Below, piece by piece: positions 1 through 23,213 of a DNA stretch of 23,460 bases. The stretch comes from a virus (lineage: Duplodnaviria > Heunggongvirae > Uroviricota > Caudoviricetes): IMG/VR virus record IMGVR_UViG_2728369186_000002. One strand, given 5' to 3'. How positions within the stretch are numbered: position 1 is the first letter of the stretch; the number at the start of each line of letters is the position of its first letter. The notes under the pieces were generated by a model. It did not search any database. It was not told the origin of the DNA and worked only from the letters and a program-made list of their open reading frames with translations. The translations under genes were made by a program, and so were the position numbers.

Positions 1-482
1 CCCCACGCCAGAGACGTGTTGCTGTGGCGACCGTCATCACTTCCGGTCAGCACATCGTGCTTTTTCCCCTTGTTGTCAGTTACGCGGAGATAATCCCCGG
101 AGAAAGTCGACACACGGCTGTAAGCCACACCCGCCATCGCATACGCGCTGAACCATTCATTCACGCGCACAGACGGCCCCGCCATTACGCTGAACCAGCG
201 GTTACGAACGGAATCTTCATGCCAGCGGGTATCGCTGTAACGGGTAATCTGGCGATTCTTGTCTCCTGCATAGCTGAACGACGTCACCATCCCCAGTGTG
301 TCCGTAAACTCATAACGGTATTTCACGTTAATCCCGTTCAGATCATCACTGCCGGGAACGTTCGTCCGGGCATGAAGATACCCCGCGCTCAGCGTGGACT
401 GATGTTCAGACGCCCATGCAGGCGCACCGGATACGGCCAGACAAATGGCTGCGGACAAAATGGCGGCATAAAGTTTACGCAT
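1..482 (-). CDS. lom: Lom outer-membrane protein (Ail/Lom family), 3' end runs off window start
   Basis: Minus-strand ATG at 482..480 with GAGAGG Shine-Dalgarno upstream; translation begins [37 protein letters not shown]..., a signal peptide followed by beta-barrel sequence, near-identical to lambda Lom as recalled. The 173-aa plus-strand ORF 24..545 is its antisense shadow. Confidence 0.85.
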
Positions 483-504
483 AATTACCTCTCGCTTTTC
501 TGCA

Positions 505-530
505 ATAAAAAAGGCGTCATTTCTGACGCC
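505..530 (-). terminator. Rho-independent terminator downstream of J
   Basis: 7-bp stem ggcgtca (513-519) / tgacgcc (524-530) with loop tttc; on the minus strand the hairpin is followed by a U-run (plus-strand A-run 507-512). Sits 19 nt after the J stop. Confidence 0.6.
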
Positions 531-548
531 CGTTCTGGGTTATAAAAT

Positions 549-1719
<1,171 letters not shown>

Positions 1720-1729
1720 NNNNNNNNNN
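1720..1729. other. Assembly gap (10 N) with overlapping flanks
   Basis: Run of n; sequence left of the gap (about 1440-1719) recurs right of it (about 1800-2079) with substitutions. Confidence 0.95.
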
Positions 1730-2622
1730 GATTTCATTGCTGACATCCGTAATGGATGTCCTGATTTCAGCCAGGTCAGGCGCAAGCTGACCGTTATCAA
1801 TCTGCGTCCACAGCTCCTGAGCCAGATGGGTTTTCCCTATCTCGCCTTTGAAAAAATCCAGATAGCCTGATGCATCATCACTCGGCTGACCGACAGCCTC
1901 CACGAATGCCGATTTGCCAACGGTGTTCACACTGCGAACGTAAAAATAATAATTATGGCCCGGCCTGATATTGATACTGGCGGCTATCCAGTACAGCGCC
2001 GTGCCAAGATAGCGTGCTGTGGTTTCAACCTGCCTGATATCGGTAATCCGCGTTTCCGAGAACCAGAACTCAAACTGTACCGTCGGATCATAAACCGCAA
2101 GATGCGGCGTGGCGGTTATCTGAAAATAGCCCGGCGTCAGCTCAATCCGCGACGGCGCTGCCGGTGCGGCAATCCGGAACGATACCGATGCCGGATCGCC
2201 CTGCTGTCCCCACGCATTTACCGCCCGGACCGTCAGCGTGTAACGCCCCAGCGCCAGTTGCCTGAAGCGGTATGTGGTTTCCGTCGTCCGGGCCGTGCTG
2301 ACCAGCCGCTCACTGCCGTCATCCGCTGTTACGGTCAGACGGAGCAGGAAGCTCACGCCCTTCACCACCTTCGGCGTGTCCCAGCGCGCCAGCACCTGAT
2401 ACTCCCCGCTGTCTGCGGTGACTTCTGCGGTCAGGTGCTGCACCGCGGGCGGCGTGACGCCATTCACCGTGCCGCTCAGGTCGCCGTCAAAGTGCGCCCC
2501 GTTATCCACGATGGCTTCTTTTTCCGGTACATGCTGCACGGCGGTGATGGCATACGTGCCGCCGTCGTTCTCACGGATACTCACGCAGCGGAACAGGCGC
2601 TGGCGCAACGTCGGCAGCTTCA
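1730..2622 (-). CDS. J: J segment, a second allele: FN3-like repeat region plus start of a divergent C-terminal domain
   Basis: Part of the 768-aa ORF 1628..3934; encodes ...[46 protein letters not shown]... then [42 protein letters not shown], which diverges from the lambda-type sequence in 549..1719 after the shared FFKG motif. Confidence 0.75.
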
Positions 2623-2632
2623 NNNNNNNNNN
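2623..2632. other. Assembly gap (10 N) with overlapping flanks
   Basis: Run of n; about 430-520 bp on each side are near-identical (2100-2622 versus 2633-3062). Confidence 0.95.
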
Positions 2633-3941
2633 CGCCGGATCGCCCTGCTGCCCCCACGCATTTACTGCCCGGACTGTCAGCCTGTAGTTCCCCAGAGCCA
2701 GTTGTGTGAAGCGGTAAGTGGTTTCCGTCGTCCGGGCCGTGCTGACCAGCCGCTCACGGCCGTCATCCGCTGCCACGGTCAGGCGAAGCAGGAAGCTCAC
2801 GCCCTTCACCACCTTCGGCGTGTCCCAGCGGGCCAGCACCTGGTATTCCCCGCTGTCTGCGGTGACTTCTGCGGTCAGGTGCTGCACCGCTGGCGGCGTG
2901 ACACCATTTACCGTGCCGCTCTGGTCGCCGTCAAAGTGCGCCCCGTTATCCACGATGGCCTCTTTTTCCGGTACATGCTGCACGGCGGTGATGGCATACG
3001 TGCCGTCGTCGTTCTCACGGATACTCACGCAGCGGAACAGGCGCTGGCGCAACGTCGGCAGCTTCAGCCCCCACACGCTGTATTCAGCAACACCGTCAGG
3101 AACACGGCTCACTTTCACCTTCACGCCGTCGGTGACGGACTGAACCTCCACGCTGACCGGACTCCCCTGCCCGTCAACCAGGCTTATCAGCGTGGTGCCG
3201 GAAGATGGCAGCGTGATTTCACGGTCGAGCGTCAGCGTCCGGGTCTGGCTGTTTACCGCCAGCACGCGCCCGCCGGTGCTGATACCGGCATAGTCATCAT
3301 CGCAGATTTCAATGACATCGCCCGGTACATGGCGAAGCCCTTCTGCGCCGACGCTGAAATCCACGGTCTGCGTTTCCAGCAGTTCTGTTTTAATCAGCCA
3401 CAGCCCGGCGCGGTGTGCCTGCCCCCGACTGGTACAGCCAAAGGCATCCATCTTCGTGACGTTACGACCGTAACGGGCAATGGCCTGCGTGTCCTCCACA
3501 AGCTCTGTCGCCGTCTCCCAGCCGTTATCCGGGTCAATCCAGTTCACCTCAACGGCATTATGGCGGTCCTTCAGGGCGCTGAAGCTGTAGCGGAACGGCG
3601 CACCATCATCCGGCATCACCACATTACTGCGGTTATAGGTCCACACCTTATCCGACGGTCGGTCCTGCACGAACGTCAGCGTCTGCCCGTTCCATACCGG
3701 CATACAGCGCATCGCAGAGCAGAAATCACTGAGCACATCCCACGCCTTGCGCTGTGTGGTCAGGTACGCATTACAGGTGATGCGCGGCTCCGTGCCGCCA
3801 AAACCGTCCGGCACCGACTGATCGCAATGCTGGCCGATGACATACAGCGCCCATTTGTCCACATCCGCCGCACCAAGACGTTTCCCCATGCCGTAGCGCG
3901 GATGGGTCAGCATATCCCACAGACACCAGGCCATGTTGTTG
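2633..3941 (-). CDS. J: J segment, central domains
   Basis: Translation MAWCLWDMLTHPRYGMGKRLGAADVDKWALYVIGQHCDQSVPDGFGGTEPRITCNAYLTTQRKAWDVLSDFCSAMRCMPVWNGQTLTFVQDRPSD... matches the lambda J central region as recalled. Confidence 0.85.
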
Positions 3942-3951
3942 NNNNNNNNNN
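3942..3951. other. Assembly gap (10 N) with overlapping flanks
   Basis: Run of n; 3752-3941 is near-identical to 3952-4141 (peptide has H on one side, N on the other in ...YVIGQ[H/N]CDQ...). Confidence 0.95.
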
Positions 3952-4930
3952 GCGCTGTGTGGTCAGGTAGGCATTACAGGTGATGCGCGGCTCCGTGCCA
4001 CCAAAGCCATCCGGCACCGACTGGTCGCAATTCTGGCCGATGACATACAGCGCCCATTTGTCCACATCCGCCGCACCGAGACGCTTCCCCATGCCGTAGC
4101 GCGGATGGGTCAGCATATCCCACAGACACCAGGCCATGTTGTTGCTGTATGCTGGCTTAAACGTTCCGTCCCAGATACCGCTGTATTGCCGCGTCTGCGG
4201 GTTATAGTTCGACGGCACCTGCAGAATGCGCCCGCGAAGATGATAATTACGGCTCACCTGCTGGCTGCCGAACTGTTCCGAGTCCACCTGCACGCCGACC
4301 AGTGCCGTGTTCGGGTAGCACTGTTTCACATCGATGATTTCGGTGTATGACGACCAGAGCGTTTTGTTCTGCAGCTGGTCTGTGGTGCTGTCCGGCGTCA
4401 TCCTGCGCATCCGTATATTGAACGGGCGCGGCGGCAGGTTACCCACCACCACCGAGGCCAGATACTGCGAGGTGGTTTTGCCCTTAATGGTGATGTCTTT
4501 TTCCGTCACCCAGCCACCATTACGCTGTATCTGAACCAGCAGGCGAACTTCCGACGGATTCCGGTCCCCCTTTGAGGTGGTTTCCACCAGTGCCTGCACA
4601 CCGAAGGTAAAGCGCAGTCGGTCGATGTTTGCCGACGTGATGGCGCGGGTGATCGGCGTGTCGTATTTCACTTCCGTACCCAACACCGTCTCGGAGCCGG
4701 AGGATTCAAATCCCTCCGGCGGAGTCTGCTCCTGCTCACCAGCCCGGAACACCACCGTGACACCGGCGATGTTGGTATTCCCATCACTGTCCAGCACCGG
4801 CGTACTGTTCAGCAGCACGCTTTTTAATCCATCCATCGGACCTTCAATCGGCCCTTCACTGATGGCATCAATCACACTCAGCAACTGCGTGGACTTCAGG
4901 TTGTCCTTCGCTTCGCGCGGGGTATGCCCC
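3952..4930 (-). CDS. J: J segment, N-terminal region; first ~7 codons lie in the following gap
   Basis: Frame reads GHTPREAKDNLKSTQLLSVIDAISEGPIEGPMDGLKSVLLNSTPVLDSDGNTNIAGVTVVFRAGEQEQTPPEGFESSGSETVLGTEVKYD..., matching the lambda J N-terminus from residue ~8. Confidence 0.85.
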
Positions 4931-5092
4931 NNNNNNNNNNNNNNNNNNNNNNNNNNNNNNNNNNNNNNNNNNNNNNNNNNNNNNNNNNNNNNNNNNNNNN
5001 NNNNNNNNNNNNNNNNNNNNNNNNNNNNNNNNNNNNNNNNNNNNNNNNNNNNNNNNNNNNNNNNNNNNNNNNNNNNNNNNNNNNNNNNNNNN
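4931..5092. other. Assembly gap (162 N) hiding the J start and I 3' end
   Basis: Run of n between the I body and the J N-terminal region. Confidence 0.95.
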
Positions 5093-5660
5093 ACCCCACG
5101 CGCATTTCACCGTACAGAACAGGCAGAACATTGCCCTGGGCAACCATGTTATCCAGTGAAGAAAAATAGGTGTTCTGTTTGCCGTTATCCGTTGTCTGTG
5201 TGCGGGGGGTTTTGGGTTTAGGGGCCAGCATCTGTGCAACACCGCCAAGCGTCATACTGGCACCGAGAGAAAACAGCAGATTACTCGCCATAATTCCTAC
5301 CCCCGGCATCCATATAGCAACCGCCATAACAGCCGCCCCCAGCACAGCCTGAAACACACCGCCACTTTTGGCTCCCGCCAGACGCGGCACGATATGGATC
5401 ACAGCACCATTTGCCAGCGGTTCATTAAGACGGGCTGATAATTCCGTTTCACCTGTATCACGCCCGGCAATGCGTACCTGATACCAGCCGTCGCTCAGCT
5501 TCTGACGAAACGCCGGGATCTGCATGGCCAGCGCCCGGATGGCTTCGGCCCCCGTTTTCACACGCAGATCGATGCGGCGGCCAAATCGTTGTAAATCCCC
5601 GTAAAGGCAGATGCGCGCCATGCCCGGTGACGCCAGAGGGAGTGTGTGCGTCGCTGCCAT
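5093..5660 (-). CDS. I: Tail assembly protein I, 3' end lost in gap
   Basis: ATG at 5660..5658; MAATHTLPLASPGMARICLYGDLQRFGRRIDLRVKTGAEAIRALA...NGKQNTYFSSLDNMVAQGNVLPVLYGEMRVG, near-identical to lambda I as recalled. Confidence 0.85.
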
Positions 5661-6067
5661 TTGTCGGTATACCTCTCTCGTTTGCTCAGTTGTTCAGGAA
5701 TATGGTGCAGCAGCTCGCCGTCACCACAGTAAATGGCGGCATGATTCGGCACCGATGAACCAAAGCAGCACAGCAGCACATCGCCCGGTTGTGCTGATGA
5801 CAACGGCACCTGATACAGCCCTGTGGCCTCCAGATTATCCAGATAGAGATTCTGACCGTGACGCCACCAGTCATCCCCGCGATGAAAATCCGGCATCTCA
5901 ATTCCCGCCAGATGGTAAGCGTCCCGGAACAGCGTGTAACAGTCCGTCACCCCGTGCTCAAAGCGCCGCCCGGTGAGATGCGGCACACAGCGGAATTTAT
6001 GAATCGCCCCCCGGCAGACCAGCCACCACGGCAAATCACTCTGCACCTGCAGCCGCCGGTCGGCCTC
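5558..6067 (-). CDS. K: Tail assembly protein K (NlpC/P60-type), copy 1, 3' portion with stop
   Basis: ...EADRRLQVQSDLPWWLVCRGAIHKFRCVPHLTGRRFEHGVTDCYTLFRDAYHLAGIEMPDFHRGDDWWRHGQ...YNDLAAASICV with stop at 5558; matches the lambda K C-terminal half; overlaps the I start. Confidence 0.8.
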   Translation of the reverse strand, partial: EADRRLQVQSDLPWWLVCRGAIHKFRCVPHLTGRRFEHGVTDCYTLFRDAYHLAGIEMPDFHRGDDWWRHGQNLYLDNLEATGLYQVPLSSAQPGDVLLCCFGSSVPNHAAIYCGDGELLHHIPEQLSKRERYTDKWQRRTHSLWRHRAWRASAFTGIYNDLAAASICV

Positions 6068-6077
6068 NNNNNNNNNN
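6068..6077. other. Assembly gap (10 N) with overlapping flanks
   Basis: Run of n; 6078-6427 repeats 5718-6067 with substitutions. Confidence 0.95.
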
Positions 6078-6604
6078 CGTCGCCGCAGTAAATTGCGGCG
6101 TGATTCGGCACTGATGAACCAAAACAGCACAGCAGCACATCGCCCGGCTGTGCCGCTGACAACGGCACCTGATACAGCCCCGTCGCCTCCAGATTATCCA
6201 GATAGAGATTCTGGCCGTTACGCCACCAGTCATCCTCACGATAAAAGTCCGGCATCTCAATCCCCGCCAGATGATAAGCATCCCGGAACAGTGTGTAACA
6301 GTCCGTCACACCGTGCTCAAAGCGCCGCCCGGTGAGATGCGGCACACAGCGGAACTTATGAATCGTCCCCCGGCAGACCAGCCACCACGGCAAATCACTC
6401 TGCACCTGCAGCCGCCGGTCGGCCTCACTCAGCCAGGGCAGACCACCGGGGTGGCTGTGGACCAGCGCCACAATCTCTCCCTGCATTTCTGCACTCAGCC
6501 AGTCCTCCGGCGACATCCGGAAATACTCCTCCGGCTCACCGGATATATTCACGCAGGGAAAATATCTTTCCCCCTCCGGTGTTCTCACCACGAAGCCGCA
6601 CGAC
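6078..6604 (-). CDS. K: Tail assembly protein K, copy 2 (second allele), truncated at both ends by gaps
   Basis: ...SCGFVVRTPEGERYFPCVNISGEPEEYFRMSPEDWLSAEMQGEIVALVHSHPGGLPWLSEADRRLQVQSDLPWWLVCRGTIHKFRC...DFYREDDWWRNGQ...NHAAIYCGD; differs from copy 1 at several residues. Confidence 0.8.
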
Positions 6605-6708
6605 NNNNNNNNNNNNNNNNNNNNNNNNNNNNNNNNNNNNNNNNNNNNNNNNNNNNNNNNNNNNNNNNNNNNNNNNNNNNNNNNNNNNNNNNNNNNNNNN
6701 NNNNNNNN
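6605..6708. other. Assembly gap (104 N) hiding the L 3' end and K 5' end
   Basis: Run of n; the computed ORF 5947..7146 artificially fuses L and K across it. Confidence 0.95.
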
Positions 6709-7146
6709 CACCGCGCTCAGTTCACTGCACTGCTCGATGCGCCAGCGGCTGATCACCTCCTGCTCCGGATCGGCGTCACTGTTTCCGTTGACGAAGTTCA
6801 CCGCATCCAGAAAACGGGCGTAAACCTTACGCCGGACCACCGTTCCGCCGACCAGACTCTGCAGGTCTTCCGCCATCCCGGTGACCATGCCGTGCAGGTT
6901 AGAAACCGTCAGTGTCGGACGGGCAGCACTGCCCTTGCCATTCAGTTCAAATCCCGTCCCCTGAATGGGGTATGCCTGATACTGCCGCCCCTGCCAGGTA
7001 ACCGGCTCACCTTTTTCGTTCTGCTCATTACAGAAAAAATAACGTTCACCACCGACCTCTGTCAGATCGATTTCCCAGAGCACCACCTGGGCTGACTGAG
7101 TGAGGCGTGTCGTCTCATGATGTGTTTCCTGTGGAATATCCTGCAT
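6709..7146 (-). CDS. L: Minor tail protein L, N-terminal 146 aa (3' end in gap)
   Basis: ATG at 7146; MQDIPQETHHETTRLTQSAQVVLWEIDLTEVGGERYFFCNEQNEKGEPVTWQGRQYQAYPIQGTGFELNGKG..., near-identical to lambda L as recalled. Confidence 0.85.
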
Positions 7147-7155
7147 CAGAGCCTC

Positions 7156-7485
7156 CTATGCCACGACCTGTTCAAAATCTGCCGTTATGGTTATCCACAG
7201 CGCCCCCACGCTTGCCGACCATTTACGACAAACCACCCTGATCGGCTTCCAGTCATAAGGTGGCGTCCACTGAAATGCGCGGACGCCACCGTGCCGTTCC
7301 AGAAAGGCTTTTAAAGATGGGTGTTCACATTTACGAACACGTATCGTCACGCTGTAAATCGACAACTGGTTATTCAGTCCCGCCGCACGACGCTGTTCAT
7401 AACCATCGCCCAGCTTCACTGTCACCACTTTCGGCTCTGATACCACATTCATATCCGGGCGCACTTTCCAGTGAAACGTCTCCAT
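7156..7485 (-). CDS. M: Minor tail protein M
   Basis: 109 aa, METFHWKVRPDMNVVSEPKVVTVKLGDGYEQRRAAGLN...ADFEQVVA; same length and colinear with lambda M (MKTFRWKVKPGM...AEFEQVVN); start overlaps the H stop. Confidence 0.85.
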   Translation of the reverse strand: METFHWKVRPDMNVVSEPKVVTVKLGDGYEQRRAAGLNNQLSIYSVTIRVRKCEHPSLKAFLERHGGVRAFQWTPPYDWKPIRVVCRKWSASVGALWITITADFEQVVA

Positions 7486-10400
7486 TACCGATATGCTCCA
7501 CTTAACCGACCACCATCACGGGCCTGCTGTTGCATAAAGTCCGCTGCCGCTTTTTTCCCGAGGTCATAAACCACCTTCAGGGCAGCCGGACCTATCTGCC
7601 CGTTCGTGCCATCGTTATTGATCTCGATGTTGTACTGCGGGGCAAACATCGCCATACCTGAACCACCAATATCCGCCACAACCCCCAGCTTACCGTCAGC
7701 ACCACGACGCAGTGGCAGAATGGCTTCAGGTCCCGCTTCCCCCATCACACCCGCGCCTTTTGCAAAAGCAAAAAACGTCGGACGGTTAACCACCGTGCCA
7801 CTGTAACGACTCAAATCAGCAGACTGATAAATCCCCCCATTGGCATTCAGGGAAAGGCTGCTGAGATCAAATCCCAGTACACTGCCAATCCCTTTTATCG
7901 ATTTCATCATGGTTGCCTGCGCCAGGATTTTCGCCATATCTGACAGCACAGAAGAGGTGAAGGATTTGAAATTGAGTTTGCCGGTAGTGACAAAAGTTGC
8001 CAGGCCATTTCCCATGTTGCTGAAGGCTGACGAGAACACCTGTTCTGCTGTTCCTGCCGTATTATCTGCATCCACGGTAAAATCCTGAAATGCACGCAGG
8101 ACTCCGTTTTTCCAGTTACCCTGCACAACTTCAAGCTGTTGCCAGTAACGGCGATTCTCATTCAGTTGTCGGTTCAGGCTCTCCGTCAGCGCCTGCTCGG
8201 CCTTTCTGTAGTCATCCGTGTTATATGTTCCTTTCTGCTCACTATCCCGCCTCAACTGCTCCAGCTGTTGCTGGTATTTCTGGCGAAGACTCAGTTGTAC
8301 CTGATATCGCTGCCGCTGCTGATCACCCATACCCACAGTGGCGATATCCAGGTCATGTTGCTGACGCTGAGCGCGCTCTTCTTCAGCCAGTTGACTGGTC
8401 AGCTGAATTGTTTTTTTCTTCAGCTCGTTGAGTGCCGTCTGTTTCTGAAGCTCCTGCTGTTTTACATCCAGCAGCGTCAGTGCCTGAATCAGTTCATCTT
8501 TACGGGCCAGCACACTCTTTTCATCTGCCGTCAGTTTTTTCCCGTCCAGGTCGCTGATGCGCTGCTGCAGAGCCAGAAGCTGTTTATGCGCTTCTGTCAT
8601 CCTTTCCGTGGCAATGCCTGCTGACTGTCTGGCAGCAGCAATCTGTCCTTCCACCTGTGCCTGTTGCTGACTGTACTGCAGCAATAACCGGGTGGCCTCA
8701 TCATTACGGGGGTCGCGTGTTTTTTTCTTACCGGATGCCAGGGCTTTCTCGTAACGTTCATTTTCACGTTGTATCGCCGCATCCCTGACAGCCTGATCGG
8801 CGTACTGCATGGAATTAATACGCGCAATTTCACGCTGATGTCGTGCTGCTTCCGTTTCATTCATCCGGTTCAGTGCAGCATTTTCAGCATTACGGCGTTT
8901 CTGTTGCTCCTGATAATTCCGCTCTGCCTGCTCTTTTGCATCCTGCAAATCCTTCTGGCGTTTTTTCTCCTGAAGCTCGTTAAGACGCTGCTGATCGTAC
9001 TCAACCTGAGAAGATGATGCCGTCCAGGGGAGTCTTTTCGCCCGCGACACTTTCTCCTGTAAAGCGGAAATCTGTTCATCCAGCGAGTCTTCACGACCAA
9101 TATTCATGGCCGCATCCCAGAAACGACTCCATAAATCAGACAGATACTTCAGCGTACTGCCCAGCGCATTGAGGTTATTATCAATATCCGCAGTACGCCG
9201 ACCGGTTTCCTCTGCCAGTGCAGACATGGCTATCCGTGCCGCATCACTGGACCGCCCCTGTTCCCCAAGGACGCGTATCTGCTCAAGCTGAGTGGCAGTA
9301 AGAAAATGCAGCTCATTGTCCAGAGCCTTCGCGGCATTTACAGGATCATCCTTCAGCCGCTTAAACTGATTTATGGTATCGCTGACCGACTGGCCAACCG
9401 ATCGCTCCATCTGTGCGGCAGCTCTCGCCACCATACCGATATCGTTTCCACGAAATGCACCACTCCCCACCACCTGAGCCAGCGCACCGGCTGCAGCATG
9501 TTGCGTAATACCATTCCCGGAAATAGCACGACTGAGCGTCCACAGCTGCCCGGCAGTGACTCCGGCATAATGCCCCGTCAGCGACAACTGGCGGTTAAAT
9601 TCTTCCCCCTCCTTCTGACCATCATACCAGGCTTTACCCAGACCATAGACGGCCGCGGCAATACCGCCAATAACCCCGCCCAGCATCATGCCTTTCGGTG
9701 ACATCAGTGTGTCTATCCATCCGGCACGGTTAGCCAGCGTTATCCCGGATCCCCTCAGCGCACCTAAATTGCCGCGAGCCAGTTCACCTATCAGAACGCC
9801 TATCTCCTGGCGGGCCGCTGCACTTTTCAGACCCAGCGAATGCGTGGCTTTTCCTGCCTGCTCCATTTTGCGGATATACACTTCTGCAGCACTGCTTACC
9901 CCCAGCTGGGCAGCCTTAGCACGAAGCAACTCAGAAGAAGAAAGATTCTGGCGGGTTGCCTGCTCTTTAAGCTGACGGATAAACGCCACTTTCTGTCGGG
10001 TAGCCTCTGCCTCAGCCTGCGTAAGAACACCGGTTTTCGCCGTAACCTCAGAAATCAGCGCCAGATAATCCTGCTGACCAATCCCGCCACTGTTTCTGGC
10101 CTGTCGGATCTGCTGCTGAATACGCTGTAATTCCTGCAGTCCCGCACTGGCCTGTTTCACACTGTCAATCTGACGATAAAACGCGGCAGCCGCTTTATCC
10201 TGAGCCTCCGCCAGAGCCATGGCCTGCGCCTGTTCCTCGCGCATTTTCTGGCTCAGTGCCTCCATACGCTGGCGGGTTTGCTCCACCTCGCGGGCCATGC
10301 GTTCATGAGCCTGTGCGCTCTTCTCCACCGTCTGCGCATGGACGGATGCGGCTGTTGCAGCCGAAGAAGCCGCCTGCATTGTCTGCCGGGCGGCCTGAGT

Positions 10401-10550
10401 CTGACGCTCCATAAAACGCTGCATACGGGCAGAAGACCGTTCTGCATCGCTGGCTGCACCATTCAGAAGGTTTTTGATACGGGGAATTTCATTTTTAAAC
10501 TCTGCCGCATCAATCCCCAAATCAATGACCAGGTTGGCTATCTGGTCCAT
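7485..10550 (-). CDS. H: Tail length tape measure protein H
   Basis: About 1021 aa from MDQIANLVIDLGIDAAEF (the track ORF starts 10 codons earlier at 10580); long coiled-coil-rich body; C-terminus ...INNDGTNGQIGPAALKVVYDLGKKAAADFMQQQARDGGRLSGAYR matches the lambda H C-terminus. Confidence 0.9.
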   Translation of the reverse strand: MDQIANLVIDLGIDAAEFKNEIPRIKNLLNGAASDAERSSARMQRFMERQTQAARQTMQAASSAATAASVHAQTVEKSAQAHERMAREVEQTRQRMEALSQKMREEQAQAMALAEAQDKAAAAFYRQIDSVKQASAGLQELQRIQQQIRQARNSGGIGQQDYLALISEVTAKTGVLTQAEAEATRQKVAFIRQLKEQATRQNLSSSELLRAKAAQLGVSSAAEVYIRKMEQAGKATHSLGLKSAAARQEIGVLIGELARGNLGALRGSGITLANRAGWIDTLMSPKGMMLGGVIGGIAAAVYGLGKAWYDGQKEGEEFNRQLSLTGHYAGVTAGQLWTLSRAISGNGITQHAAAGALAQVVGSGAFRGNDIGMVARAAAQMERSVGQSVSDTINQFKRLKDDPVNAAKALDNELHFLTATQLEQIRVLGEQGRSSDAARIAMSALAEETGRRTADIDNNLNALGSTLKYLSDLWSRFWDAAMNIGREDSLDEQISALQEKVSRAKRLPWTASSSQVEYDQQRLNELQEKKRQKDLQDAKEQAERNYQEQQKRRNAENAALNRMNETEAARHQREIARINSMQYADQAVRDAAIQRENERYEKALASGKKKTRDPRNDEATRLLLQYSQQQAQVEGQIAAARQSAGIATERMTEAHKQLLALQQRISDLDGKKLTADEKSVLARKDELIQALTLLDVKQQELQKQTALNELKKKTIQLTSQLAEEERAQRQQHDLDIATVGMGDQQRQRYQVQLSLRQKYQQQLEQLRRDSEQKGTYNTDDYRKAEQALTESLNRQLNENRRYWQQLEVVQGNWKNGVLRAFQDFTVDADNTAGTAEQVFSSAFSNMGNGLATFVTTGKLNFKSFTSSVLSDMAKILAQATMMKSIKGIGSVLGFDLSSLSLNANGGIYQSADLSRYSGTVVNRPTFFAFAKGAGVMGEAGPEAILPLRRGADGKLGVVADIGGSGMAMFAPQYNIEINNDGTNGQIGPAALKVVYDLGKKAAADFMQQQARDGGRLSGAYR

Positions 10551-11249
10551 AACGCACACCTCCGGAAATACCTTCCCCAAGATGCATCAGTTCTTCGTCC
10601 GTTCGCTCCGGTATCCCGTTCTCTTCCGGTAAAAGGCTGAAATCAGCCACCGCAGCATCACTGCTACCGGACACCATTCTCACGATCAATGCCTTCAGCG
10701 AGGCAAACTGCGCATCCATCCACACATCACTGAAGCTATGCATCTGGAAATAATCGCCCCATTCACCAAGCTCAGTGGCCGACATTTCCGACAGCATCCG
10801 CCGCCAGTCTGCCCGCCGGAACTCCCGGGCAAGCCGCATGACAAACTGCATTTCCCGCGTCAGGACTTTTCCGGCGTCAGCACCTCATGCTCCAAATCCC
10901 CGGCATTCTCAATGGCTCCCATACCGCTCAGCGACAGAACCATCTCCGCCCCCGCTCCTAGGGCATCATACGACCATGTTGTAATAACGGATGCGCAAAG
11001 CGTCTCAACATCCTGAGACTGTTCCGCATTCCACAGTGAGCGGGAAACCAGCCAGGCATTGATATCCATCCCCATCCGCAGAAAAGCAATCTGTCGTTCA
11101 GCCTCCGGCAGTTCTCCCTCTTCGGCATCAAACTTTGCCGTTCGCTGCTGAACAAACGCCAGATATTCAATTCTCTGCAGCCCGGACAGCTCACTGAGCA
11201 CCACGGACTGCTTTTCATAATTAAACGAGCCCTGTTTCAGAAACATCAT
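10522..11249 (-). CDS. T: Tail assembly chaperone GT, made by programmed -1 frameshift from G into T
   Basis: The T frame (MQFVMRLAREFRRADWRRML...) is the -1 frame relative to G and is open only from 10884 downward. The G 3' end carries heptamer GGAAAAG (plus coordinates 10866..10872), positioned like the lambda G-T slippery site GGGAAAG. Confidence 0.7.
10860..11249 (-). CDS. G: Tail assembly chaperone G
   Basis: MMFLKQGSFNYEKQSVVLSELSGLQRIEYLAFVQQRTAKFD..., colinear with lambda G (MFLKTESFEHNGVTVTLSELSALQRIEHLAL...); GGTGGAG Shine-Dalgarno upstream; start could be the second ATG at 11246. Confidence 0.85.
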   Translation of the reverse strand: MMFLKQGSFNYEKQSVVLSELSGLQRIEYLAFVQQRTAKFDAEEGELPEAERQIAFLRMGMDINAWLVSRSLWNAEQSQDVETLCASVITTWSYDALGAGAEMVLSLSGMGAIENAGDLEHEVLTPEKS

Positions 11250-11306
11250 GTTCTCCACCTGCAAAAAAGCCCCGGATAACCGGGGCAAATGATGAGTATC
11301 GTCCTG

Positions 11307-12056
11307 TTAACCTGCGGCGCTGACAGCCACCGCAGCCACGGCCACAAAATCGCCGTCAGAAGTCATGCCCACAATGCTGACACTGCCCTGCTTCACGCCT
11401 TTCACCGTGGCCACAAGCCCGTTCAGGGTCACCGTGGCAGTCTGTGGATCTGTCGAATGCACACTGATCGCTTTGTCACTGGCTCCGTCAGGTTTTACTG
11501 TAAAGGTCAGCGTGGTGGTTGCTCCCACTTTTACACTGGCAGATGCCGGTGCCACCGTCAGCCCGGTAACGCTCACTGTTTCAGTGCCTTCCTCTGCCAG
11601 ATGCGGACGCCCCACACCGCTGATTTTCACTGTGCGGGTCATCACGTCTTTTGAGGCAATGGTTTTACCCAGTGAGCTCAGCCAGCCACGGAAAACATCA
11701 ACAGTGCCGTTGGGATATTTGATACGAAACGCGCAGACTTCACCGGAGTCGAACAACTGAACCAGTTTTTTCTGCCCGCTGTCACCCGGACGCCAGGCCA
11801 GCGTCGCCGAAGTATCACCGACGGATTTCTGCCCCTGGGTTGTCGTTTTCCAGTCTGCATCTTCATCATCGAGATAAGTGTCATCTTCTGCATCAGCGGT
11901 CATTTCGCCAGGTTGCAGATCCTTCACCATCGCAAGACGCAGCCAGTCAGTGTCCGATAAAGGGTTCGCAAACGCATCGCCCTTGCCGGTGTACATCCAG
12001 AACGTCGTTCCCGCACCTTTCGTTTTTGCCAGTGGATTTGGTGTGGTCATTGCCAC
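11307..12056 (-). CDS. V: Major tail protein V with C-terminal Ig-like domain
   Basis: 249 aa; ...KTKGAGTTFWMYTGKGDAFANPLSDTDWLRLAMVKDLQPGEMTADAEDDTYLDDEDADWKTTTQGQKS...NGTVDVFRGW... matches lambda V; T/V/S-rich C-terminal Ig-like domain. Confidence 0.9.
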   Translation of the reverse strand: MAMTTPNPLAKTKGAGTTFWMYTGKGDAFANPLSDTDWLRLAMVKDLQPGEMTADAEDDTYLDDEDADWKTTTQGQKSVGDTSATLAWRPGDSGQKKLVQLFDSGEVCAFRIKYPNGTVDVFRGWLSSLGKTIASKDVMTRTVKISGVGRPHLAEEGTETVSVTGLTVAPASASVKVGATTTLTFTVKPDGASDKAISVHSTDPQTATVTLNGLVATVKGVKQGSVSIVGMTSDGDFVAVAAVAVSAAG

Positions 12057-12061
12057 CTCCT

Positions 12062-12463
12062 TTAATTCGTGTACGTGATCTGGTATGTGATTTCCGCCAT
12101 CGCCCAGGTGGCCATCTCATTATCACGTTGATAGTTAAAACCGAGAGGGATCAGGGTGTCGATGAGTCCGGAAAGTGCCGGTATATCATTCAGAGCCGGG
12201 AAAATGGTGCTCTCCATCCACATATCCAGCTCTGAATCCGGTGCCTGTGCCCGGATGAAGACAGCAATATGCAGAACAGCCTGCCAGTCATCTTCATCCG
12301 TCATTTTTCCGGTGTACTGAGCATCACTCAGCCACACCGCCACGGCAGGCAGTTCCTGCGCATCAATAAATGCCGGAAGCCCGTCAAAAAACGTGGCGCT
12401 GTCTTCACACTGTTCCCGAAGGCGTGCCAGTACGGCCTGGCGGATTTGTGTATGTCGGTTCAT
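12062..12463 (-). CDS. U: Tail terminator protein U
   Basis: MNRHTQIRQAVLARLREQCEDSATFFDGLPAFIDAQELPAVAVWLSDAQYTG...ITYQITYTN, colinear with lambda U. ATG at 12463 overlaps the Z stop as ATGA; an upstream in-frame ATG at 12475 is the alternative start. Confidence 0.85.
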   Translation of the reverse strand: MNRHTQIRQAVLARLREQCEDSATFFDGLPAFIDAQELPAVAVWLSDAQYTGKMTDEDDWQAVLHIAVFIRAQAPDSELDMWMESTIFPALNDIPALSGLIDTLIPLGFNYQRDNEMATWAMAEITYQITYTN

Positions 12464-13038
12464 CGGGTCAGCCATAACCTCAGTTGTTGTTTCAGTGCAT
12501 ACCCCAGCTGTTTCGGCATTTCCGCAGCAATAATGCGGTCGCGGGCATCTTCAAATGCCTGTGTCAGCGGTCCGGACAGCGGGACTTTCACCACATCAAT
12601 GGGGTAACGATTTTTGCCATCAATACGCCGCATCACATGCCAGCGACCATTCGCCAGTTGCTGAATAAACGCATCCCGGAAAAGATATTTACCCACCTTC
12701 AGCACACTGCCACGGTACTGCAGTTTTCCACCACGCCGGGCCAGTCTGACCCGGGCTGTCCCCAGCTTAATAGCGGGCAGATTGCCCCGGTTAACGCGGA
12801 TCCTGGCCGTCATTTTTCCTGACGGACTGGCTTTAAACACCCGGACACGCTGACGTACCAGTTTCAGGGGGATCCCTTTCACCTGGTTATCTCCCGCAAC
12901 GGTATTCCCGGCAACCTGCCGGGTGGCGACCGAGACCGCTTTCTGTGCCACACGGTTTATCGCCCATGCGCTGGCCTGTGGCACCATACGGGTATCAAGG
13001 CTGTTCAGATTACGGATGGCATTCTCAAGCCCCTTCAT
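12460..13038 (-). CDS. Z: Tail completion protein Z
   Basis: 192 aa, MKGLENAIRNLNSLDTRMVPQASAWAINRVAQ...FIQQLANGRWHVMRRIDGKNRYPIDVVKVPLSGPLTQAF...LGYALKQQLRLWLTR; same length and colinear with lambda Z. Confidence 0.85.
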   Translation of the reverse strand: MKGLENAIRNLNSLDTRMVPQASAWAINRVAQKAVSVATRQVAGNTVAGDNQVKGIPLKLVRQRVRVFKASPSGKMTARIRVNRGNLPAIKLGTARVRLARRGGKLQYRGSVLKVGKYLFRDAFIQQLANGRWHVMRRIDGKNRYPIDVVKVPLSGPLTQAFEDARDRIIAAEMPKQLGYALKQQLRLWLTR

Positions 13039-13049
13039 CCCACACCTCT

Positions 13050-13325
13050 TTACTCAATAAAGATCATTGGCTTACCGTTAAAACGTTCATGCCGTGTGAC
13101 CGTCCATTGTTGTCCGTCATAAACAACGCGATCCCCGCGCCGTGGGCGGTATCCCGAAGAAAACACCACCAGAGAGACCGCAGGTCCGGACAGAGCATTC
13201 AGCTCTGCCAGTGTTTCTCCCGGGATCACAGTCATATCGGCATCATTAATCGAGGCTGTCTTTCCCATCTTTCTGACCGTGATCGCATCCATATGCGCTG
13301 CCAGCCGGGAAAAGGGATCAGACAT
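13050..13325 (-). CDS. Head-tail joining protein, FII-like
   Basis: 91 aa, sits immediately upstream of Z as FII does in lambda; ...RRGDRVVYDGQQWTV... resembles the FII RRGDTLTIGEENFWV motif region. Assignment is by position and weak similarity. Confidence 0.55.
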   Translation of the reverse strand: MSDPFSRLAAHMDAITVRKMGKTASINDADMTVIPGETLAELNALSGPAVSLVVFSSGYRPRRGDRVVYDGQQWTVTRHERFNGKPMIFIE

Positions 13326-13641
13326 TGAGTTTTACCGGCACTTCTTCTGCACTGGTTCCGGCATCTGCCCAGACAACCCCGACCAGCGGATCAGAGCCGC
13401 TGTTAGTCAGCTGAACTTTTCCGGACTTCAGATAAACCTTCTTACCCGTTTTCATGTCATCCGTTTTCAGCTTAGGCAGCATAAACACACCTTCGGTCAT
13501 GCCGTCGCCTGTTTCACCCTGTGGAATATCGGTCAGCGCCACCGCAAAAACATCACCCACCTGCACCAGATCTCCGCTGCTGATGGCTGCACTGGCAACA
13601 ATCGCCACCGTTTTTCCTTCTTCTACAAAATTCTTTGCCAT
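13318..13641 (-). CDS. Small head-associated protein (possibly DUF2190-type decoration or completion protein)
   Basis: 107 aa from MAKNFVEEGKTVAIVASAAISSGDLVQVGDVFAVALTDIPQGETGDGMTEGVFMLPK...; GGAGA Shine-Dalgarno 6 nt upstream of ATG 13641; lies between capsid and FII-like genes. Family assignment is from memory and uncertain. Confidence 0.5.
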   Translation of the reverse strand: MAKNFVEEGKTVAIVASAAISSGDLVQVGDVFAVALTDIPQGETGDGMTEGVFMLPKLKTDDMKTGKKVYLKSGKVQLTNSGSDPLVGVVWADAGTSAEEVPVKLNV

Positions 13642-13684
13642 AACTGTCTCCGCACAGCCCCGTTCAGGGGCTGATTTCAGGTAC

Positions 13685-13704
13685 AAAAAAAGCCCTTACG
13701 GGCC
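13685..13704 (-). terminator. Candidate intrinsic terminator or attenuator after the capsid gene
   Basis: Minus strand GGCCC-GUAA-GGGCU hairpin (GNRA loop) followed by a U7 run (plus-strand A-run 13685-13691), 24 nt after the capsid stop. A second 7-bp stem (13655-13673) lies just before the next gene's Shine-Dalgarno. Confidence 0.5.
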
Positions 13705-13727
13705 ATCAGAGTTGTTGTCTGCGACGT

Positions 13728-15686
13728 TTACGCCGTACATTTCACCAGACCGCGGTGATCAACTGGCGCGACACCGGCGTCAATACGCACTTTCGTTGTC
13801 ACGCCATCCACACTGAAGCCCTCCATCTGATCAATATATGGCGTATCCACACCGTTGAGATAAGCCACTTCAATCGTATCGGAGCCTTTTGACGCAGCCA
13901 GGTAGAAGGTGGTCTGGCTGTTATCATCAAGACGAGGCTCTGCAATAACGGTCGCAAAATCTTTCACCGGGTTAATAATACCGGCGTTAATGTCAGCCCC
14001 CTTGACACTTGAGGAGCGAATGACCTGGTTAGCAACAGACTCCATCGCCGTCGGTACCAGTACGAACGCAGGACGAATATTCAGATGACGCTCCCCCTCT
14101 TTCTGAACGCGCATCAACTGGCGGGCTTTATCCAGCGATGCCACGTCCATTGCAGCGCTCTCCAGTACGTTTGCATGTTTCGCTTTATCGAACAGACTTA
14201 CATTATCTGTGGAGATTTTCGGGTTAGACGTCAGAATGGCATAAACCAGATCGGCAATAGTGGATTTCGCCGCACGGCCCAGTTTCATCGGGACATCGGT
14301 CAGCATATTCAGATCATCATTGATAATGGCCTGACGGGTGATACTGAACAGCTCGCCATAGGTCGCCAGTGCAATAGTGGCCTGTTTATCTCCGGTGGTG
14401 ACGTATTTATATTCCGCCCCTTCACGCACCTGACGCAGAGCACTGAAGCCCCCCATACCCACACGATGGGCAATTTTAAAATCAGACAACTGACCTTTCC
14501 GCGTCCACTGTTCATAGGTTTCAGGAGCATCTTCCCAGCCCTGCAGAATGGCTTTGTTCGCAACATCCAGCAGAATATTACCGAAGTCAGACGTACTGTG
14601 TGTGAACGCCGCACCGACCATCTGCATCGGGTTATAACTGGAAACCCCAATACCCCGTTCAGTCAGTGACATACGGGCATATTCACGCAGGGTCATCCCG
14701 TTGTAGACATTATCACGTTCGGTTTTTTCAAATCCGGCACGCGCCATCAGCGCCTGGCGGATCCCGTCCCCCACAAAATTACCGTTACCGGCATAAATAT
14801 GAGCCGGTGTATTTTTATTGGATGGCGTGGACTCGCGCCCCATCTCGTTCAACAGCTTTTCGCGGGCCTGCTCCAGCGAACATTCAGGATCGGCAAGACA
14901 CTGAGCCTGCAGCGTCTGATAACGCCCGCCAAACATGGCAAACAGATCATTAATACCGTTTACACGCGCTTTTTGCTCTGCCAGTACCTGCGCACGGATA
15001 CTGTTTTCATCCACCACGGGTGCTGCTGCCTGCACTGGCGTCCGGGAGGCTGCAGGTTCATCATCCTGTACGCGTGGAGCACTGTTGCGTGGCGGAGTAA
15101 TCATGTTTCGAATGGATTCCGGCATCTTTTTAAATTCCTCTGTACGTTTTGACTGAATACATGCCATTGCCTTAACGGCTGGCGTCACCTGATCAGCAAA
15201 TCCATGTGCCAGACATTCGGCACCGGACATCCAGGTCTCATCCGCCAGCATGGCAGCAATTTCATCGGTGGTTTTCCCGGTTTTCTGTGCATAAGCGGGT
15301 AACAGAACCGCCTCAACCTTATCGAGCAGGTCGGCATAGGTGCGCATGTCCTCCGCATCACCGCCCGTAAAGCCAAATGGTTTATGAATCATCATGAAGG
15401 TGTTTTCCGGCATAATGACCGGGTTTCCCACCATCGCAATGACCGACGCCATTGACGCCGCCACACCGTCGACATAAACGGTAATGGACGCACCATGTGT
15501 TTTCAGTGCATTAAAAATGGCGATGCCTTCAAAGACATCGCCACCCGGTGAATTGATATGGAGATTAATGTGGGTGATATCGCCCAGTGCATTCAGATCA
15601 CTGATAAACTGCTTCGCTGTAACACCCCAGAAACCAATCTCGTCATAAATATAAATATCCGCGTCACTCTGGTGACCAGCCTGCAT
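13728..15686 (-). CDS. Head maturation protease (ClpP/S14-like) fused to major capsid protein
   Basis: One continuous frame; N-terminal part has ClpP-like sequence (...INSPGGDVFEGIAIFNALKTHGASITVYVDGVAASMASVIAMVG...MIHKP...), C-terminal ~300 aa look like an HK97-fold major capsid protein, and no separate capsid gene follows. Start taken as ATG 15686 (MQAGHQSDADIYIYDEIGFWGV), 14 nt after the portal stop; the track ORF extends to 15947 inside the portal gene. Confidence 0.7.
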   Translation of the reverse strand: MQAGHQSDADIYIYDEIGFWGVTAKQFISDLNALGDITHINLHINSPGGDVFEGIAIFNALKTHGASITVYVDGVAASMASVIAMVGNPVIMPENTFMMIHKPFGFTGGDAEDMRTYADLLDKVEAVLLPAYAQKTGKTTDEIAAMLADETWMSGAECLAHGFADQVTPAVKAMACIQSKRTEEFKKMPESIRNMITPPRNSAPRVQDDEPAASRTPVQAAAPVVDENSIRAQVLAEQKARVNGINDLFAMFGGRYQTLQAQCLADPECSLEQAREKLLNEMGRESTPSNKNTPAHIYAGNGNFVGDGIRQALMARAGFEKTERDNVYNGMTLREYARMSLTERGIGVSSYNPMQMVGAAFTHSTSDFGNILLDVANKAILQGWEDAPETYEQWTRKGQLSDFKIAHRVGMGGFSALRQVREGAEYKYVTTGDKQATIALATYGELFSITRQAIINDDLNMLTDVPMKLGRAAKSTIADLVYAILTSNPKISTDNVSLFDKAKHANVLESAAMDVASLDKARQLMRVQKEGERHLNIRPAFVLVPTAMESVANQVIRSSSVKGADINAGIINPVKDFATVIAEPRLDDNSQTTFYLAASKGSDTIEVAYLNGVDTPYIDQMEGFSVDGVTTKVRIDAGVAPVDHRGLVKCTA

Positions 15687-15699
15687 CCTGAACCAGGAA

Positions 15700-17208: not shown

Positions 17209-17420
17209 CAGAACCTCGCCAGCCGGTACCCGGGATGCCCCCGTCGTCGTGTAATCAGAGCCGCAAGGCGGCGCTCCCACTCCTGCCGCCCCTGCCGGAT
17301 CTCAGATAAGTTTTCCATGGTCATCTGCTGACCATTAAAGGTGACGGATTTTCCGTCCAGCACCGCCATTTCAGCTTCCGTATAACGCTGAATCATGGCT
17401 TCGATATCATTCTGGTTCAT
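17208..17420 (-). CDS. W: Head-tail joining protein W (gpW-like)
   Basis: 70 aa, MNQNDIEAMIQRYTEAEMAVLDGKSVTFNGQQMTMENLSEIRQGRQEWERRLAALITRRRGHPGYRLARF; size and C-terminal RRRG motif like lambda W; GGAGG Shine-Dalgarno; ATG overlaps the terminase stop. Confidence 0.75.
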   Translation of the reverse strand: MNQNDIEAMIQRYTEAEMAVLDGKSVTFNGQQMTMENLSEIRQGRQEWERRLAALITRRRGHPGYRLARF

Positions 17421-19519: not shown

Positions 19520-20013
19520 TACTCCTCCCGCTGTAATTCCTCCTCATCATCCGCACCTGCTTCGGTCACCCGCAGGGCTATCTGATCGCGCAGATCATCA
19601 ATAATGGACTGAACACGGCTCACAGCGGCAGGGTGCAGACCGCAGTCACGTTCAAGAATATCCGGTAATGTCTCCAGCACCTGCACGACCGCTTTTGCCC
19701 AGATGGCAAACTCCCGTCTGACATCACTGGCCGGAATGAGTTGTGCCGTTTCCTGTTCGAACTTAAGACGCTCACGTTCAGACTGATACCAGGCTTTGCG
19801 CTCATGCGCGTCCATTTCGCCTTCTGCAACCGGCGGTGGTAATGCCAGAAATGCCGACACAATATCAACCACCCGATAAAGCTTGAGGTTGCTTTCATGC
19901 CCCCCTGCAACGGGTAGATTTTGCAGCCTTGCCGCAGCAGTCTGGCGATGTACACCTGACAGAGCCGCCAGTTGACTGATATTCAGCGTCAGATTTTTTA
20001 ACTCTCGATCCAT
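19519..20013 (-). CDS. Terminase small subunit (Nu1-like, N-terminal HTH)
   Basis: 164 aa, MDRELKNLTLNISQLAALSGVHRQTAAARLQN... (HTH) with acidic C-terminus; immediately upstream of and overlapping the large subunit start; ~175 bp downstream of cosN as Nu1 is in lambda. Confidence 0.8.
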   Translation of the reverse strand: MDRELKNLTLNISQLAALSGVHRQTAAARLQNLPVAGGHESNLKLYRVVDIVSAFLALPPPVAEGEMDAHERKAWYQSERERLKFEQETAQLIPASDVRREFAIWAKAVVQVLETLPDILERDCGLHPAAVSRVQSIIDDLRDQIALRVTEAGADDEEELQREE

Positions 20014-20125
20014 ACCCGCTCCAGAATGTTTTAAACATGCATCTTGCGAACAACTTTAGGCAAACGGTGTTAGTGATGAACAAAAAACAATCAAAATCGA
20101 CACCACAAAAATAAAACCACTGTAA

Positions 20126-20138
20126 TATCAATACATTA
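20126..20138 (+). promoter_or_regulatory. IHF consensus site within cosB, centred in an 8-bp inverted repeat
   Basis: TATCAATACATTA fits WATCAANNNNTTR; flanked by inverted repeat ACTGTAAT (20119-20126) / ATTACAGT (20135-20142); lies between cosN and the terminase small-subunit gene like the lambda I1 site. Confidence 0.4.
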
Positions 20139-20187
20139 CAGTAGTGGTGATGACGAATGAAATTTCAAAAACTAGCCTTTTTCCGCG

Positions 20188-20199
20188 ACGCTCCCGCCC
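20188..20199 (-). other. cosN (cohesive end site), variant of the lambda 12-nt core
   Basis: Minus strand reads ACGGGGCGGGAGCGTCGCGG against lambda ACGGGGCGGCGACCTCGCGGG: 16 of 20 identical, differences confined to the centre of the 12-mer (GGGCGGGAGCGT versus GGGCGGCGACCT). Confidence 0.65.
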
Positions 20200-23209: not shown

Positions 23210-23213
23210 TGAA

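Follow-up and report, generated by a model that had tools for sequence, protein, structure and literature searches.

The window, by which we mean the whole 23,460-nt stretch of DNA under study, opens with genes of the lambda-type tail-tip module of an E. coli-type lambdoid prophage, all on the minus strand, and is interrupted by N-runs that divide it into segments numbered 1 to 7. Segment 1 contains the 3′ part of lom (positions 1 to 482), which encodes an Ail/Lom outer membrane protein and is truncated by the window start, and the 3′ end of J (549 to 1719), made up of the C-terminal 390 codons that include the receptor-binding end. Over positions 1 to 1719 the window aligns without gaps, at 99.8% identity, to positions 18001 to 19719 of the reference locus L001, where lom is annotated at 17883 to 18482. 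Segments 2 (1730 to 2622) and 3 (2633 to 3941) are internal fragments of J, while segment 4 (3952 to 4930) is the 5′ part of J lacking its first 7 codons. Segment 5 (5093 to 6067) carries the gene for tail assembly protein I (5093 to about 5621), the 3′ end of which is lost in a gap of 162 N, together with the 3′ two-thirds of K (5558 to 6067), and matches the Pfam families Lambda_tail_I and NLPC_P60. This is followed by segment 6 (6078 to 6604), a second K fragment made up of the JAB domain and part of the NlpC/P60 domain (Pfam Prok-JAB and NLPC_P60). Segment 7 (6709 to 23460) is long and clean and begins with the 5′ part of the gene for minor tail protein L (6709 to 7146), covering positions 1 to 117 of the 206 in Pfam Phage_tail_L. 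The Pfam domains found in J are FNIII-A_GpJ, Phage-tail_3, Ig_J, Ig_J_second, Phage_Tail_Tip, and Ig_GpJ_C, and of these Ig_GpJ_C and Phage_Tail_Tip fall in segment 1. Both the domains and the gene order match the lambda-type tail-tip module (J, I, K, L), and the synteny agrees with RefSeq annotations.

There are six N-runs in the window, at exactly the positions given by the initial annotation. Four consist of 10 N and act as spacers joining contigs that overlap, and each is bordered by sequence that recurs on its other side. At 1720 to 1729, between segments 1 and 2, positions 1450 to 1719 align with 1807 to 2075 over 270 bp at 88.5% identity; by reference coordinates the full overlap pairs 1373 to 1719 with 1730 to 2075, about 347 bp, the first 77 bp of which are too divergent to align. 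At 2623 to 2632, between segments 2 and 3, positions 2190 to 2622 align with 2634 to 3066 over 433 bp at 94.2% identity. Segment 2 is therefore redundant over both 1730 to 2075 and 2189 to 2622 (the latter repeating 2633 to 3066), and only its positions 2076 to 2188 are non-redundant. The start of segment 4 (3952 to 4144) repeats the end of segment 3 (3749 to 3941) across the spacer at 3942 to 3951, over 193 bp at 95.9% identity, and the start of segment 6 (6078 to 6426) repeats the end of segment 5 (5719 to 6067) across the spacer at 6068 to 6077, over 349 bp at 93.1% identity. The local alignment score of the overlaps, 177 against a shuffle maximum of 13, is far above chance. Every repeat junction coincides with an N-run, as three of the overlaps run exactly end-to-start and the fourth, at 1720 to 1729, does so by reference coordinates once its 77 divergent bases are counted. 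A pattern across the junction at 1720 to 1729 matches the window, N for N, but gave no hits in viral, genome, and metagenome contigs.

The remaining two N-runs, of 162 N (4931 to 5092) and 104 N (6605 to 6708), have no flanking repeat, with local alignment scores of 12 and 13 that are at the shuffle level. The initial annotation had described each of the six N-runs as bordered by repeats, which holds for the four 10-N runs and is therefore wrong for these two. Its overlap lengths of about 350, 190, and 350 bp are borne out, but the roughly 500 bp given for 2623 to 2632 comes to 433 bp. It had also counted about 4.4 kb of J against about 3.4 kb in an intact gene, and the measured values agree: the J fragments add up to 4352 bp (1171 + 893 + 1309 + 979) against 3399 bp in an intact homologue. 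Likewise, K does occur twice with allelic differences, reading DFYREDDWWRNGQ in segment 6 (6211 to 6249, minus strand) and DFHRGDDWWRHGQ in segment 5 (5852 to 5890, minus strand). Judging by closed genomes, the 162-N gap conceals about 154 bp that hold the J start codon region, the I-J spacer, and the 3′ end of I (154 bp in L001, L002, and L014), while the 104-N gap conceals about 322 bp that hold the first 56 nt of K and the last 261 nt or so of L (322 bp in L001, L002, L003, and L014).

When the seven segments are placed on complete E. coli genomes, they are collinear and overlapping, and cover one lom-J-I-K-L-M module. Positions 1 to 7500 of the window correspond to 6348 bp in strain H1, and in the 25 best complete-genome records listed the equivalent spans measure 6348 to 6354 bp, each containing one intact lom-J-I-K-L module. 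Removal of the overlaps leaves a J sequence of 3379 nt that forms a single open frame of 1125 codons. This collapsed J aligns to residues 8 to 1133 of the H1 J protein without gaps and at 98.9% identity, with every J domain present once and in order.

The best matches of the segments alternate along the window: segments 7, 5, 4, and 2 are 99.6 to 100% identical to one prophage type, represented by strains A29 and CFSAN061769, and segments 6, 3, and 1 go to other alleles. Against A29, identity is 99.95% for segment 7, 99.9% for segment 5, and 99.66% for segment 2, and against CFSAN061769 it is 99.99% for segment 7, 99.9% for segment 5, and 99.6% for segment 4, falling to 96.2% for segment 2, 95.7% for segment 3, 95.3% for segment 6, and 79 to 86% for segment 1. 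We infer from this pattern that the scaffold would interleave at least two copies of the module: a backbone prophage, P1, represented by segments 7, 5, 4, and 2, and a second copy, P2, possibly with a third, represented by segments 6, 3, and 1. Segment 2, which is A29-like, is 99.7% identical across all 893 bp to sequence within the intact J of A29, and its two right-hand sub-parts show 0/434 and 0/113 mismatches. Segment 4 is CFSAN061769-like, with 99.6% identity to J of the CFSAN061769 and NC22 prophages and 0/193 mismatches to CFSAN061769 in its overlap; the overlap part of segment 5 likewise shows no mismatches to A29. Segment 1, an H1-like allele assigned to P2, is 99.8% identical to J of strain H1 and only 79 to 87% identical to J of A29, CFSAN061769, and elppa6. 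Segment 3 would belong to P2 or to a further copy, as its identities to H1, A29, elppa6, and CFSAN061769 are 96.4, 96.3, 96.6, and 95.7%, and its best match in complete genomes reaches 99.2%. The middle of this segment (3067 to 3748) is only 94.7 to 97.9% identical to P1-type references, and may not be common to both copies. Segment 6 is 99.8% identical to elppa6, and is divided. Its part at 6078 to 6426, elppa6-like and assigned to P2, has 0/349 mismatches to elppa6 against 24 to 25/349 for A29 and CFSAN061769, while the part at 6427 to 6604 is P1-type, with 0/178 mismatches to A29 and CFSAN061769. The switch falls exactly at the end of the overlap with segment 5.

The two versions of the overlapping sequence differ at 40 synonymous and 13 non-synonymous codons, 43 of the 57 substitutions lie at codon position 3, and the frames are open in both copies. 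Because the differences are mostly synonymous third-position changes, both copies are real functional alleles. Both also occur inside intact genes elsewhere, segment 2 in J of A29 and segment 6 in K of elppa6. The substitution pattern leads us to reject sequencing error as the source of the differences. Variation by a diversity-generating retroelement (DGR) or by cassettes is also rejected, including adenine mutagenesis of the DGR kind, as every type of substitution occurs, with third-position transitions as the main class. The repeats sit in the body of J and in K, outside the C-terminal receptor-binding domain where such variation would be looked for, and no reverse-transcriptase gene is annotated in this prophage region of the closed-genome homologues used for gene content.

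The distance from the last mismatch to the end of the left-hand contig is exactly 60 nt in all four overlaps. In segment 1, for example, the last mismatch with segment 2 is at position 1659, 60 nt before the segment ends. Four tails of 60 nt have a chance of about 5 × 10⁻¹³ if ends are random, or about 7 × 10⁻⁵ for any shared value. A constant tail of this kind may be taken as the signature that de Bruijn-graph assembly at k = 61 leaves at contig ends. The right-hand contig starts follow no equally simple rule: segment 3 begins on a mismatch (its first base, C at 2633, against T at 2189 of segment 2), segments 4 and 6 begin 18 and 4 nt before their first mismatch, and there is no partner for the start of segment 2. 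Polymorphism in four reference alleles was considered as an explanation of the right-hand starts, and of these starts that of segment 3 alone lay on a known polymorphic site. A third copy or a detail of the assembler is needed to account for them.

Taken together, the J and K repeats are very probably an assembly artefact, created by mis-scaffolding of contigs from at least two homologous prophage copies, and there is no biological duplication in J and K. Positions 1 to 7146 would then be a single lambda-type tail-tip module (lom, J, I, K, L, minus strand), represented by six short contigs and the start of a long one. These contigs were probably made by short-read de Bruijn-graph assembly at k = 61 from a read set with at least two homologous copies of the module, 4 to 11% divergent in patches and identical in between. 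A contig would break where an allele-specific path merges into sequence common to the other copy, and because breaks fall at these merge points, left-hand contigs would end k − 1 = 60 nt past the last allele-specific base. The scaffolder may then have linked contigs of different copies via the shared stretches, at distances of zero or below, and would have left them unmerged, with a minimum spacer of 10 N, since their overlapping ends differ. The other two runs, of 162 N and 104 N, would be ordinary size-estimated gaps, although 104 N is too small, being far from the 322 bp in references, and this counts against the explanation. The initial annotation had proposed much the same, contigs of similar lambdoid prophages joined by N and no tandem duplication, and is supported in this by the collinearity, the restored J, the 60-nt tails, the alternating identity, and the synonymous differences. 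It had further taken the prophages to be co-resident in one host; at least two similar copies are indeed present, but co-residence is likely rather than proven, as the window would fit two strains in one sample too.

It is possible that the contigs were instead ordered and spaced on a reference genome, with overlapping placements given 10 N. Collinearity is perfect in all references tested, and a contig would map to the same reference prophage whichever copy it came from. However, the gaps of 162 and 104 N differ from the 154 and 322 bp measured in references, and estimates from insert size fit better. We regard reference-guided scaffolding as unlikely; it alters the tool only, and the conclusion is unchanged. 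Alternatively, the artefact may be the same but the alleles may trace to a mixed culture or a metagenome containing two strains or phage variants. In favour of this, the window by itself shows no more, by the 60-nt rule, than that the two alleles shared a read set. Against it, E. coli genomes normally carry several J-K-L loci, and those matching the region have a median of 2 and a maximum of 14. The alleles also differ in the type of prophage they match best: the elppa6 prophage matched by segment 6 is of the lambda-head type, and the head of the backbone prophage has a ClpP-capsid fusion. This looks like two different prophages and not like variants of a single one. Segment 7 is unbroken over 16.7 kb even though strain mixtures usually fragment the whole element. 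A mixed sample is a decidedly slim prospect. There are documented cases of co-resident prophages with some 10 kb of tail genes in common at 97.7% identity, which short reads fail to resolve (PMC10925052).

That a decaying prophage carries genuine partial tandem duplications in J and K, with N-runs at the junctions by chance, is close to refuted and strikes us as extremely improbable. Direct repeats of 190 to 430 bp do exist in the sequence as written, and the repeat with a spacing of 444 is in frame, but at the other three of the four spacings (356, 203, and 359) the frame is lost. Each repeat ends precisely where a contig does, at junctions that are all N-runs, and the tails measure 60 nt in every case. 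Unlike fresh duplicates, the copies differ by 4 to 11%, mostly synonymously, and each is 99.6 to 100% identical to parts of intact genes elsewhere. The longer arrangement is found in 0 of the 25 best complete-genome records listed, which have a single J and K. It is just as hard to credit that diverged partial J and K copies lie physically in tandem and that the N-runs are a mere local assembly failure, an arrangement which, if true, could be a reservoir for recombinational reshuffling of tail-tip alleles.

As a mis-scaffolded region, the window has close parallels. Intact lom-J-I-K-L-M modules in E. coli lambdoid prophages, at the ydfJ site in A29 and CFSAN061769 and at the ssrA site in H1, have the same order, strand, and lengths once overlaps are removed, and segments of the window are 99.6 to 100% identical to these prophages. 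Unlike them, the window breaks J into four overlapping pieces and K into two, and lacks the start of J, the 3′ end of I, the start of K, and the end of L. Short-read de Bruijn-graph scaffolds of the Velvet or ABySS type, in which contigs share k − 1 bases, have the same contig ends at branch points, k − 1 nt past the last allele-specific base, as well as near-identical unmerged contig ends and minimum-length N spacers alongside sized N gaps. There is no biological difference between these and the window, whose right-hand contig starts are not fully explained by the comparison. Velvet writes at least 10 N, and NCBI treats 10 N as the shortest run counted as a gap; a usable literature statement of the Velvet minimum was not found. 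Short-read assemblies of E. coli are known to be weak in multi-copy prophage regions (PMC10925052), and the window lies in one.

On this scaffold, gene calling would yield J, K, L, and I proteins that are chimeric or truncated, such as the ORFs of 768 and 399 aa, which both pass through N-runs. These are the ORFs at 1628 to 3934, with a duplicated block of 148 aa, and at 5947 to 7146, in which L is fused to K, and both are chimeras, as had been suspected. An exact protein look-up found no record of the 399-aa ORF. An accessory ORF of 230 aa occurs in 2518 blocks of the collection, too many for it to point to a source. Counts of tail genes or of "duplications" would be inflated, which is a matter of data hygiene only. 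In the window, a receptor-binding end of J from one prophage is probably linked to tail genes from another, and since segment 1 with this C-terminus is probably attached to the wrong prophage, inference of host range or receptor from the record would be unsafe. The 60-nt tail can be checked from the sequence alone, and such a check gives away both the assembler's k and the joint presence of the two alleles in a single read set.

The repeats in the tail module of this lambdoid prophage (lom-J-I-K-L-M, with the tail genes on the minus strand) are best read as an assembly artefact and not as a biological feature. The initial annotation had proposed mis-scaffolding of overlapping contigs from similar prophage copies, and this is supported by collinearity with closed genomes, a restored J gene, constant 60-nt contig tails, and alternating allele identity. 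The window contains six N-runs, four of 10 N (1720-1729, 2623-2632, 3942-3951, and 6068-6077), one of 162 N (4931-5092), and one of 104 N (6605-6708), which split it into seven segments: seg1 (1-1719), seg2 (1730-2622), seg3 (2633-3941), seg4 (3952-4930), seg5 (5093-6067), seg6 (6078-6604), and seg7 (6709-23460). Comparison of the window with itself showed that the end of the left segment recurs at the start of the right segment at all four 10-N runs, pairing 1450-1719 with 1807-2075 (270 bp, 88.5%), 2190-2622 with 2634-3066 (433 bp, 94.2%), 3749-3941 with 3952-4144 (193 bp, 95.9%), and 5719-6067 with 6078-6426 (349 bp, 93.1%). No alignment to seg1 was obtained for the initial 77 bases of seg2 (1730-1806); since all 893 bp of seg2, these bases included, are contiguous within the intact J of the A29 prophage (99.7%), the overlap at the first gap amounts to ~347 bp with a highly divergent patch. 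The four overlaps listed earlier are thus all real, the second measuring ~433 bp rather than 500, but the claim that all six N-runs are flanked in this way fails for the 162-N and 104-N runs, where no flanking repeat was found and local alignment scores stayed at shuffle level against 177 for the positive control.

Thousands of complete E. coli genomes match window positions 1-7500. The 25 best records listed each have a corresponding stretch of only 6348-6354 bp, with single copies of lom, J, I, K (C40 peptidase), L, and M. On the H1 prophage the segments map collinearly, gap-free and overlapping: seg1 to 18001-19719, seg2 to 19450-20266, seg3 to 19833-21141, seg4 to 20949-21927, seg5 to 22082-23056, seg6 to 22708-23234, and seg7 from 23557. 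The J fragments, put at about 4.4 kb against 3.4 kb for an intact gene, measure 4352 bp versus 3399 bp. Joining 549-1719, 2076-2188, 2633-3941, and 4145-4930 gives a collapsed J of 3379 nt in a single open frame of 1125 codons, which is 98.9% identical to H1 J protein residues 8-1133 with no gaps. Pfam finds every J domain once and in canonical order, and confirms I, K (JAB and NlpC/P60), and L. Both peptides quoted as allelic versions of K were located (6211-6249 and 5852-5890, minus strand), and the ORFs at 1628..3934 and 5947..7146 are artefacts as claimed, both running through N. The former crosses two N-runs and holds a 148-residue duplicated block, the spacing of 444 nt being divisible by three; the latter links the N-terminal portion of L with K across the 104 N.

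The contig ends provide insight into how the overlaps arose. In all four, the left segment ends exactly 60 nt beyond its last mismatch with the right segment (1659 to 1719, 2562 to 2622, 3881 to 3941, and 6007 to 6067). Given how dense the mismatches are, four 60-nt tails would arise by chance with a probability of ~5e-13, and four equal tails of any length with one of ~7e-5. Such a tail is as expected of a de Bruijn-graph contig that ends where an allele-specific path merges into shared sequence: the last allele-specific k-mer begins at the last differing base and runs k-1 further, which puts k at 61. An odd value is in keeping with the k-1 overlap convention of Velvet or ABySS-type assemblers. 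The tails also establish that the two alleles come from one read set. At the right-hand side, the start of seg3 (2633) falls on a mismatch with its neighbor, at a position already known to be polymorphic; the first mismatch with the neighboring segment lies 18 nt after the start of seg4 (3952) and 4 nt after that of seg6 (6078); and the start of seg2 (1730) is without a partner in the scaffold. The starts of seg2, seg4, and seg6, which depart from the mismatch rule, may reflect a third homologous copy or an output convention of the assembler. Velvet leaves spacers of no fewer than 10 N, and NCBI counts no run shorter than 10 N as a gap; a literature search found no confirmation of these spacer conventions.

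Allele identity alternates along the scaffold. Against H1, A29, elppa6, and CFSAN061769 prophages, respectively, identities (%) are 99.8, 79-87, 80-86, and 79-86 for seg1; 92.4, 99.66, 96.5, and 96.2 for seg2; 96.4, 96.3, 96.6, and 95.7 for seg3; 97.8, 96.6, 95.6, and 99.6 for seg4; 98.1, 99.9, 84.9, and 99.9 for seg5; 94.3, 95.4, 99.8, and 95.3 for seg6; and 99.3, 99.95, 66-82 (two short stretches only), and 99.99 for seg7. At the ydfJ site, one prophage type is common to A29 and CFSAN061769, and it is this type that gives the high matches to seg7, seg5, seg4, and seg2, the other segments being closer to other prophages. The best match of seg3 among complete genomes is 99.2%, and its middle (3067-3748), which may be shared by both copies, is 94.7-97.9% identical to references of the backbone type. 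In its overlap part, seg6 differs from elppa6 at 0/349 positions and from A29 and CFSAN061769 at 24-25/349, whereas its non-redundant part (6427-6604) differs from the latter two at 0/178. Such a switch is expected when an allele-specific node gives way to a shared one. Between overlap copies, 40 codon differences are synonymous and 13 non-synonymous, codon position 3 accounts for 43 of 57 differences, and frames are open in both, so the differences are of the kind seen between functional alleles.

Read most simply, two or more copies are interleaved in the scaffold as an alternating two-copy zipper, in which the backbone prophage would contribute seg7, seg5, seg4, and seg2, while seg6, seg3, and seg1 would come from a second copy and possibly a third. 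Where contigs were linked through shared stretches, the distances would be zero or negative, and the contig ends, not being identical, would stay unmerged on either side of a minimum spacer. The 162-N run corresponds to 154 bp in H1, A29, and CFSAN061769 and the 104-N run to 322 bp (K start and L end) in these and elppa6, so the first estimate is near and the second poor. Both sizes look more like insert-size estimates than reference coordinates, and the poor one is consistent with seg6 and seg7 coming from different copies. The importance of the artefact is practical only: gene models that this scaffold yields for J, I, K, and L cannot be relied on, and J probably has its receptor-binding end joined to the wrong prophage.

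Reference-guided ordering in place of read-pair scaffolding would change the tool and leave this conclusion unchanged. The copies could also come from two strains in one sample, but we favor two prophages on one chromosome because matching E. coli genomes have multiple such loci (median 2, maximum 14) and the window alleles resemble different prophage types. Co-resident prophages sharing ~10 kb of tail genes at 97.7% identity, which short reads cannot resolve, are documented (PMC10925052). A real tandem duplication is nearly excluded: N-runs occupy all of the junctions, tail length does not vary, the frame is broken by three of the four spacings, the copies are old alleles with counterparts in intact genes elsewhere, and the longer arrangement is absent from the 25 best closed-genome records listed. 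Nor is there support for a DGR or cassette system, given the ordinary substitution spectrum, repeats outside the receptor-binding domain, and no reverse-transcriptase gene annotated in the prophage region of closed-genome homologues.

Outside the tail module, collinearity with H1 stops at 20203, just beyond the small terminase (H1 prophage 37051 onward), and the accessory and lysis region (20203-23460) is common to A29/CFSAN061769-type prophages instead, a switch that is ordinary lambdoid mosaicism. This region encodes an Rz-like spanin (21446-22075), a lysozyme (21979-22521), a DUF1327 protein (22865-23209), and a holin truncated by the end of the window. A 230-aa ORF (20585-21277, plus strand) sits between the lysis genes and the small terminase (DUF1441, 19519-20013), in the opposite orientation to all adjoining phage genes, and has a GC content of 33.8% versus ~54% for the prophage. 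It has no Pfam or PADLOC match and matches only phrog_13652, whose function is not known; the exact protein occurs in 2518 blocks of a public collection. The flanking DUF1441 small terminase and lysis genes are kept in 9 of the 10 related prophages shown, and the remaining one (L004) has an IS1 between the ORF and the terminase gene. The ORF looks like a moron-type accessory gene. In E. coli NC22 (CP109953), a relative with the same prophage, a deletion (L015 10599-11846) directly fuses a truncated K (NlpC/P60) to a truncated prohead protease, with loss of L, M, the tape-measure and tail-tube genes, and the head-tail genes; this prophage is a decayed copy of the backbone prophage.
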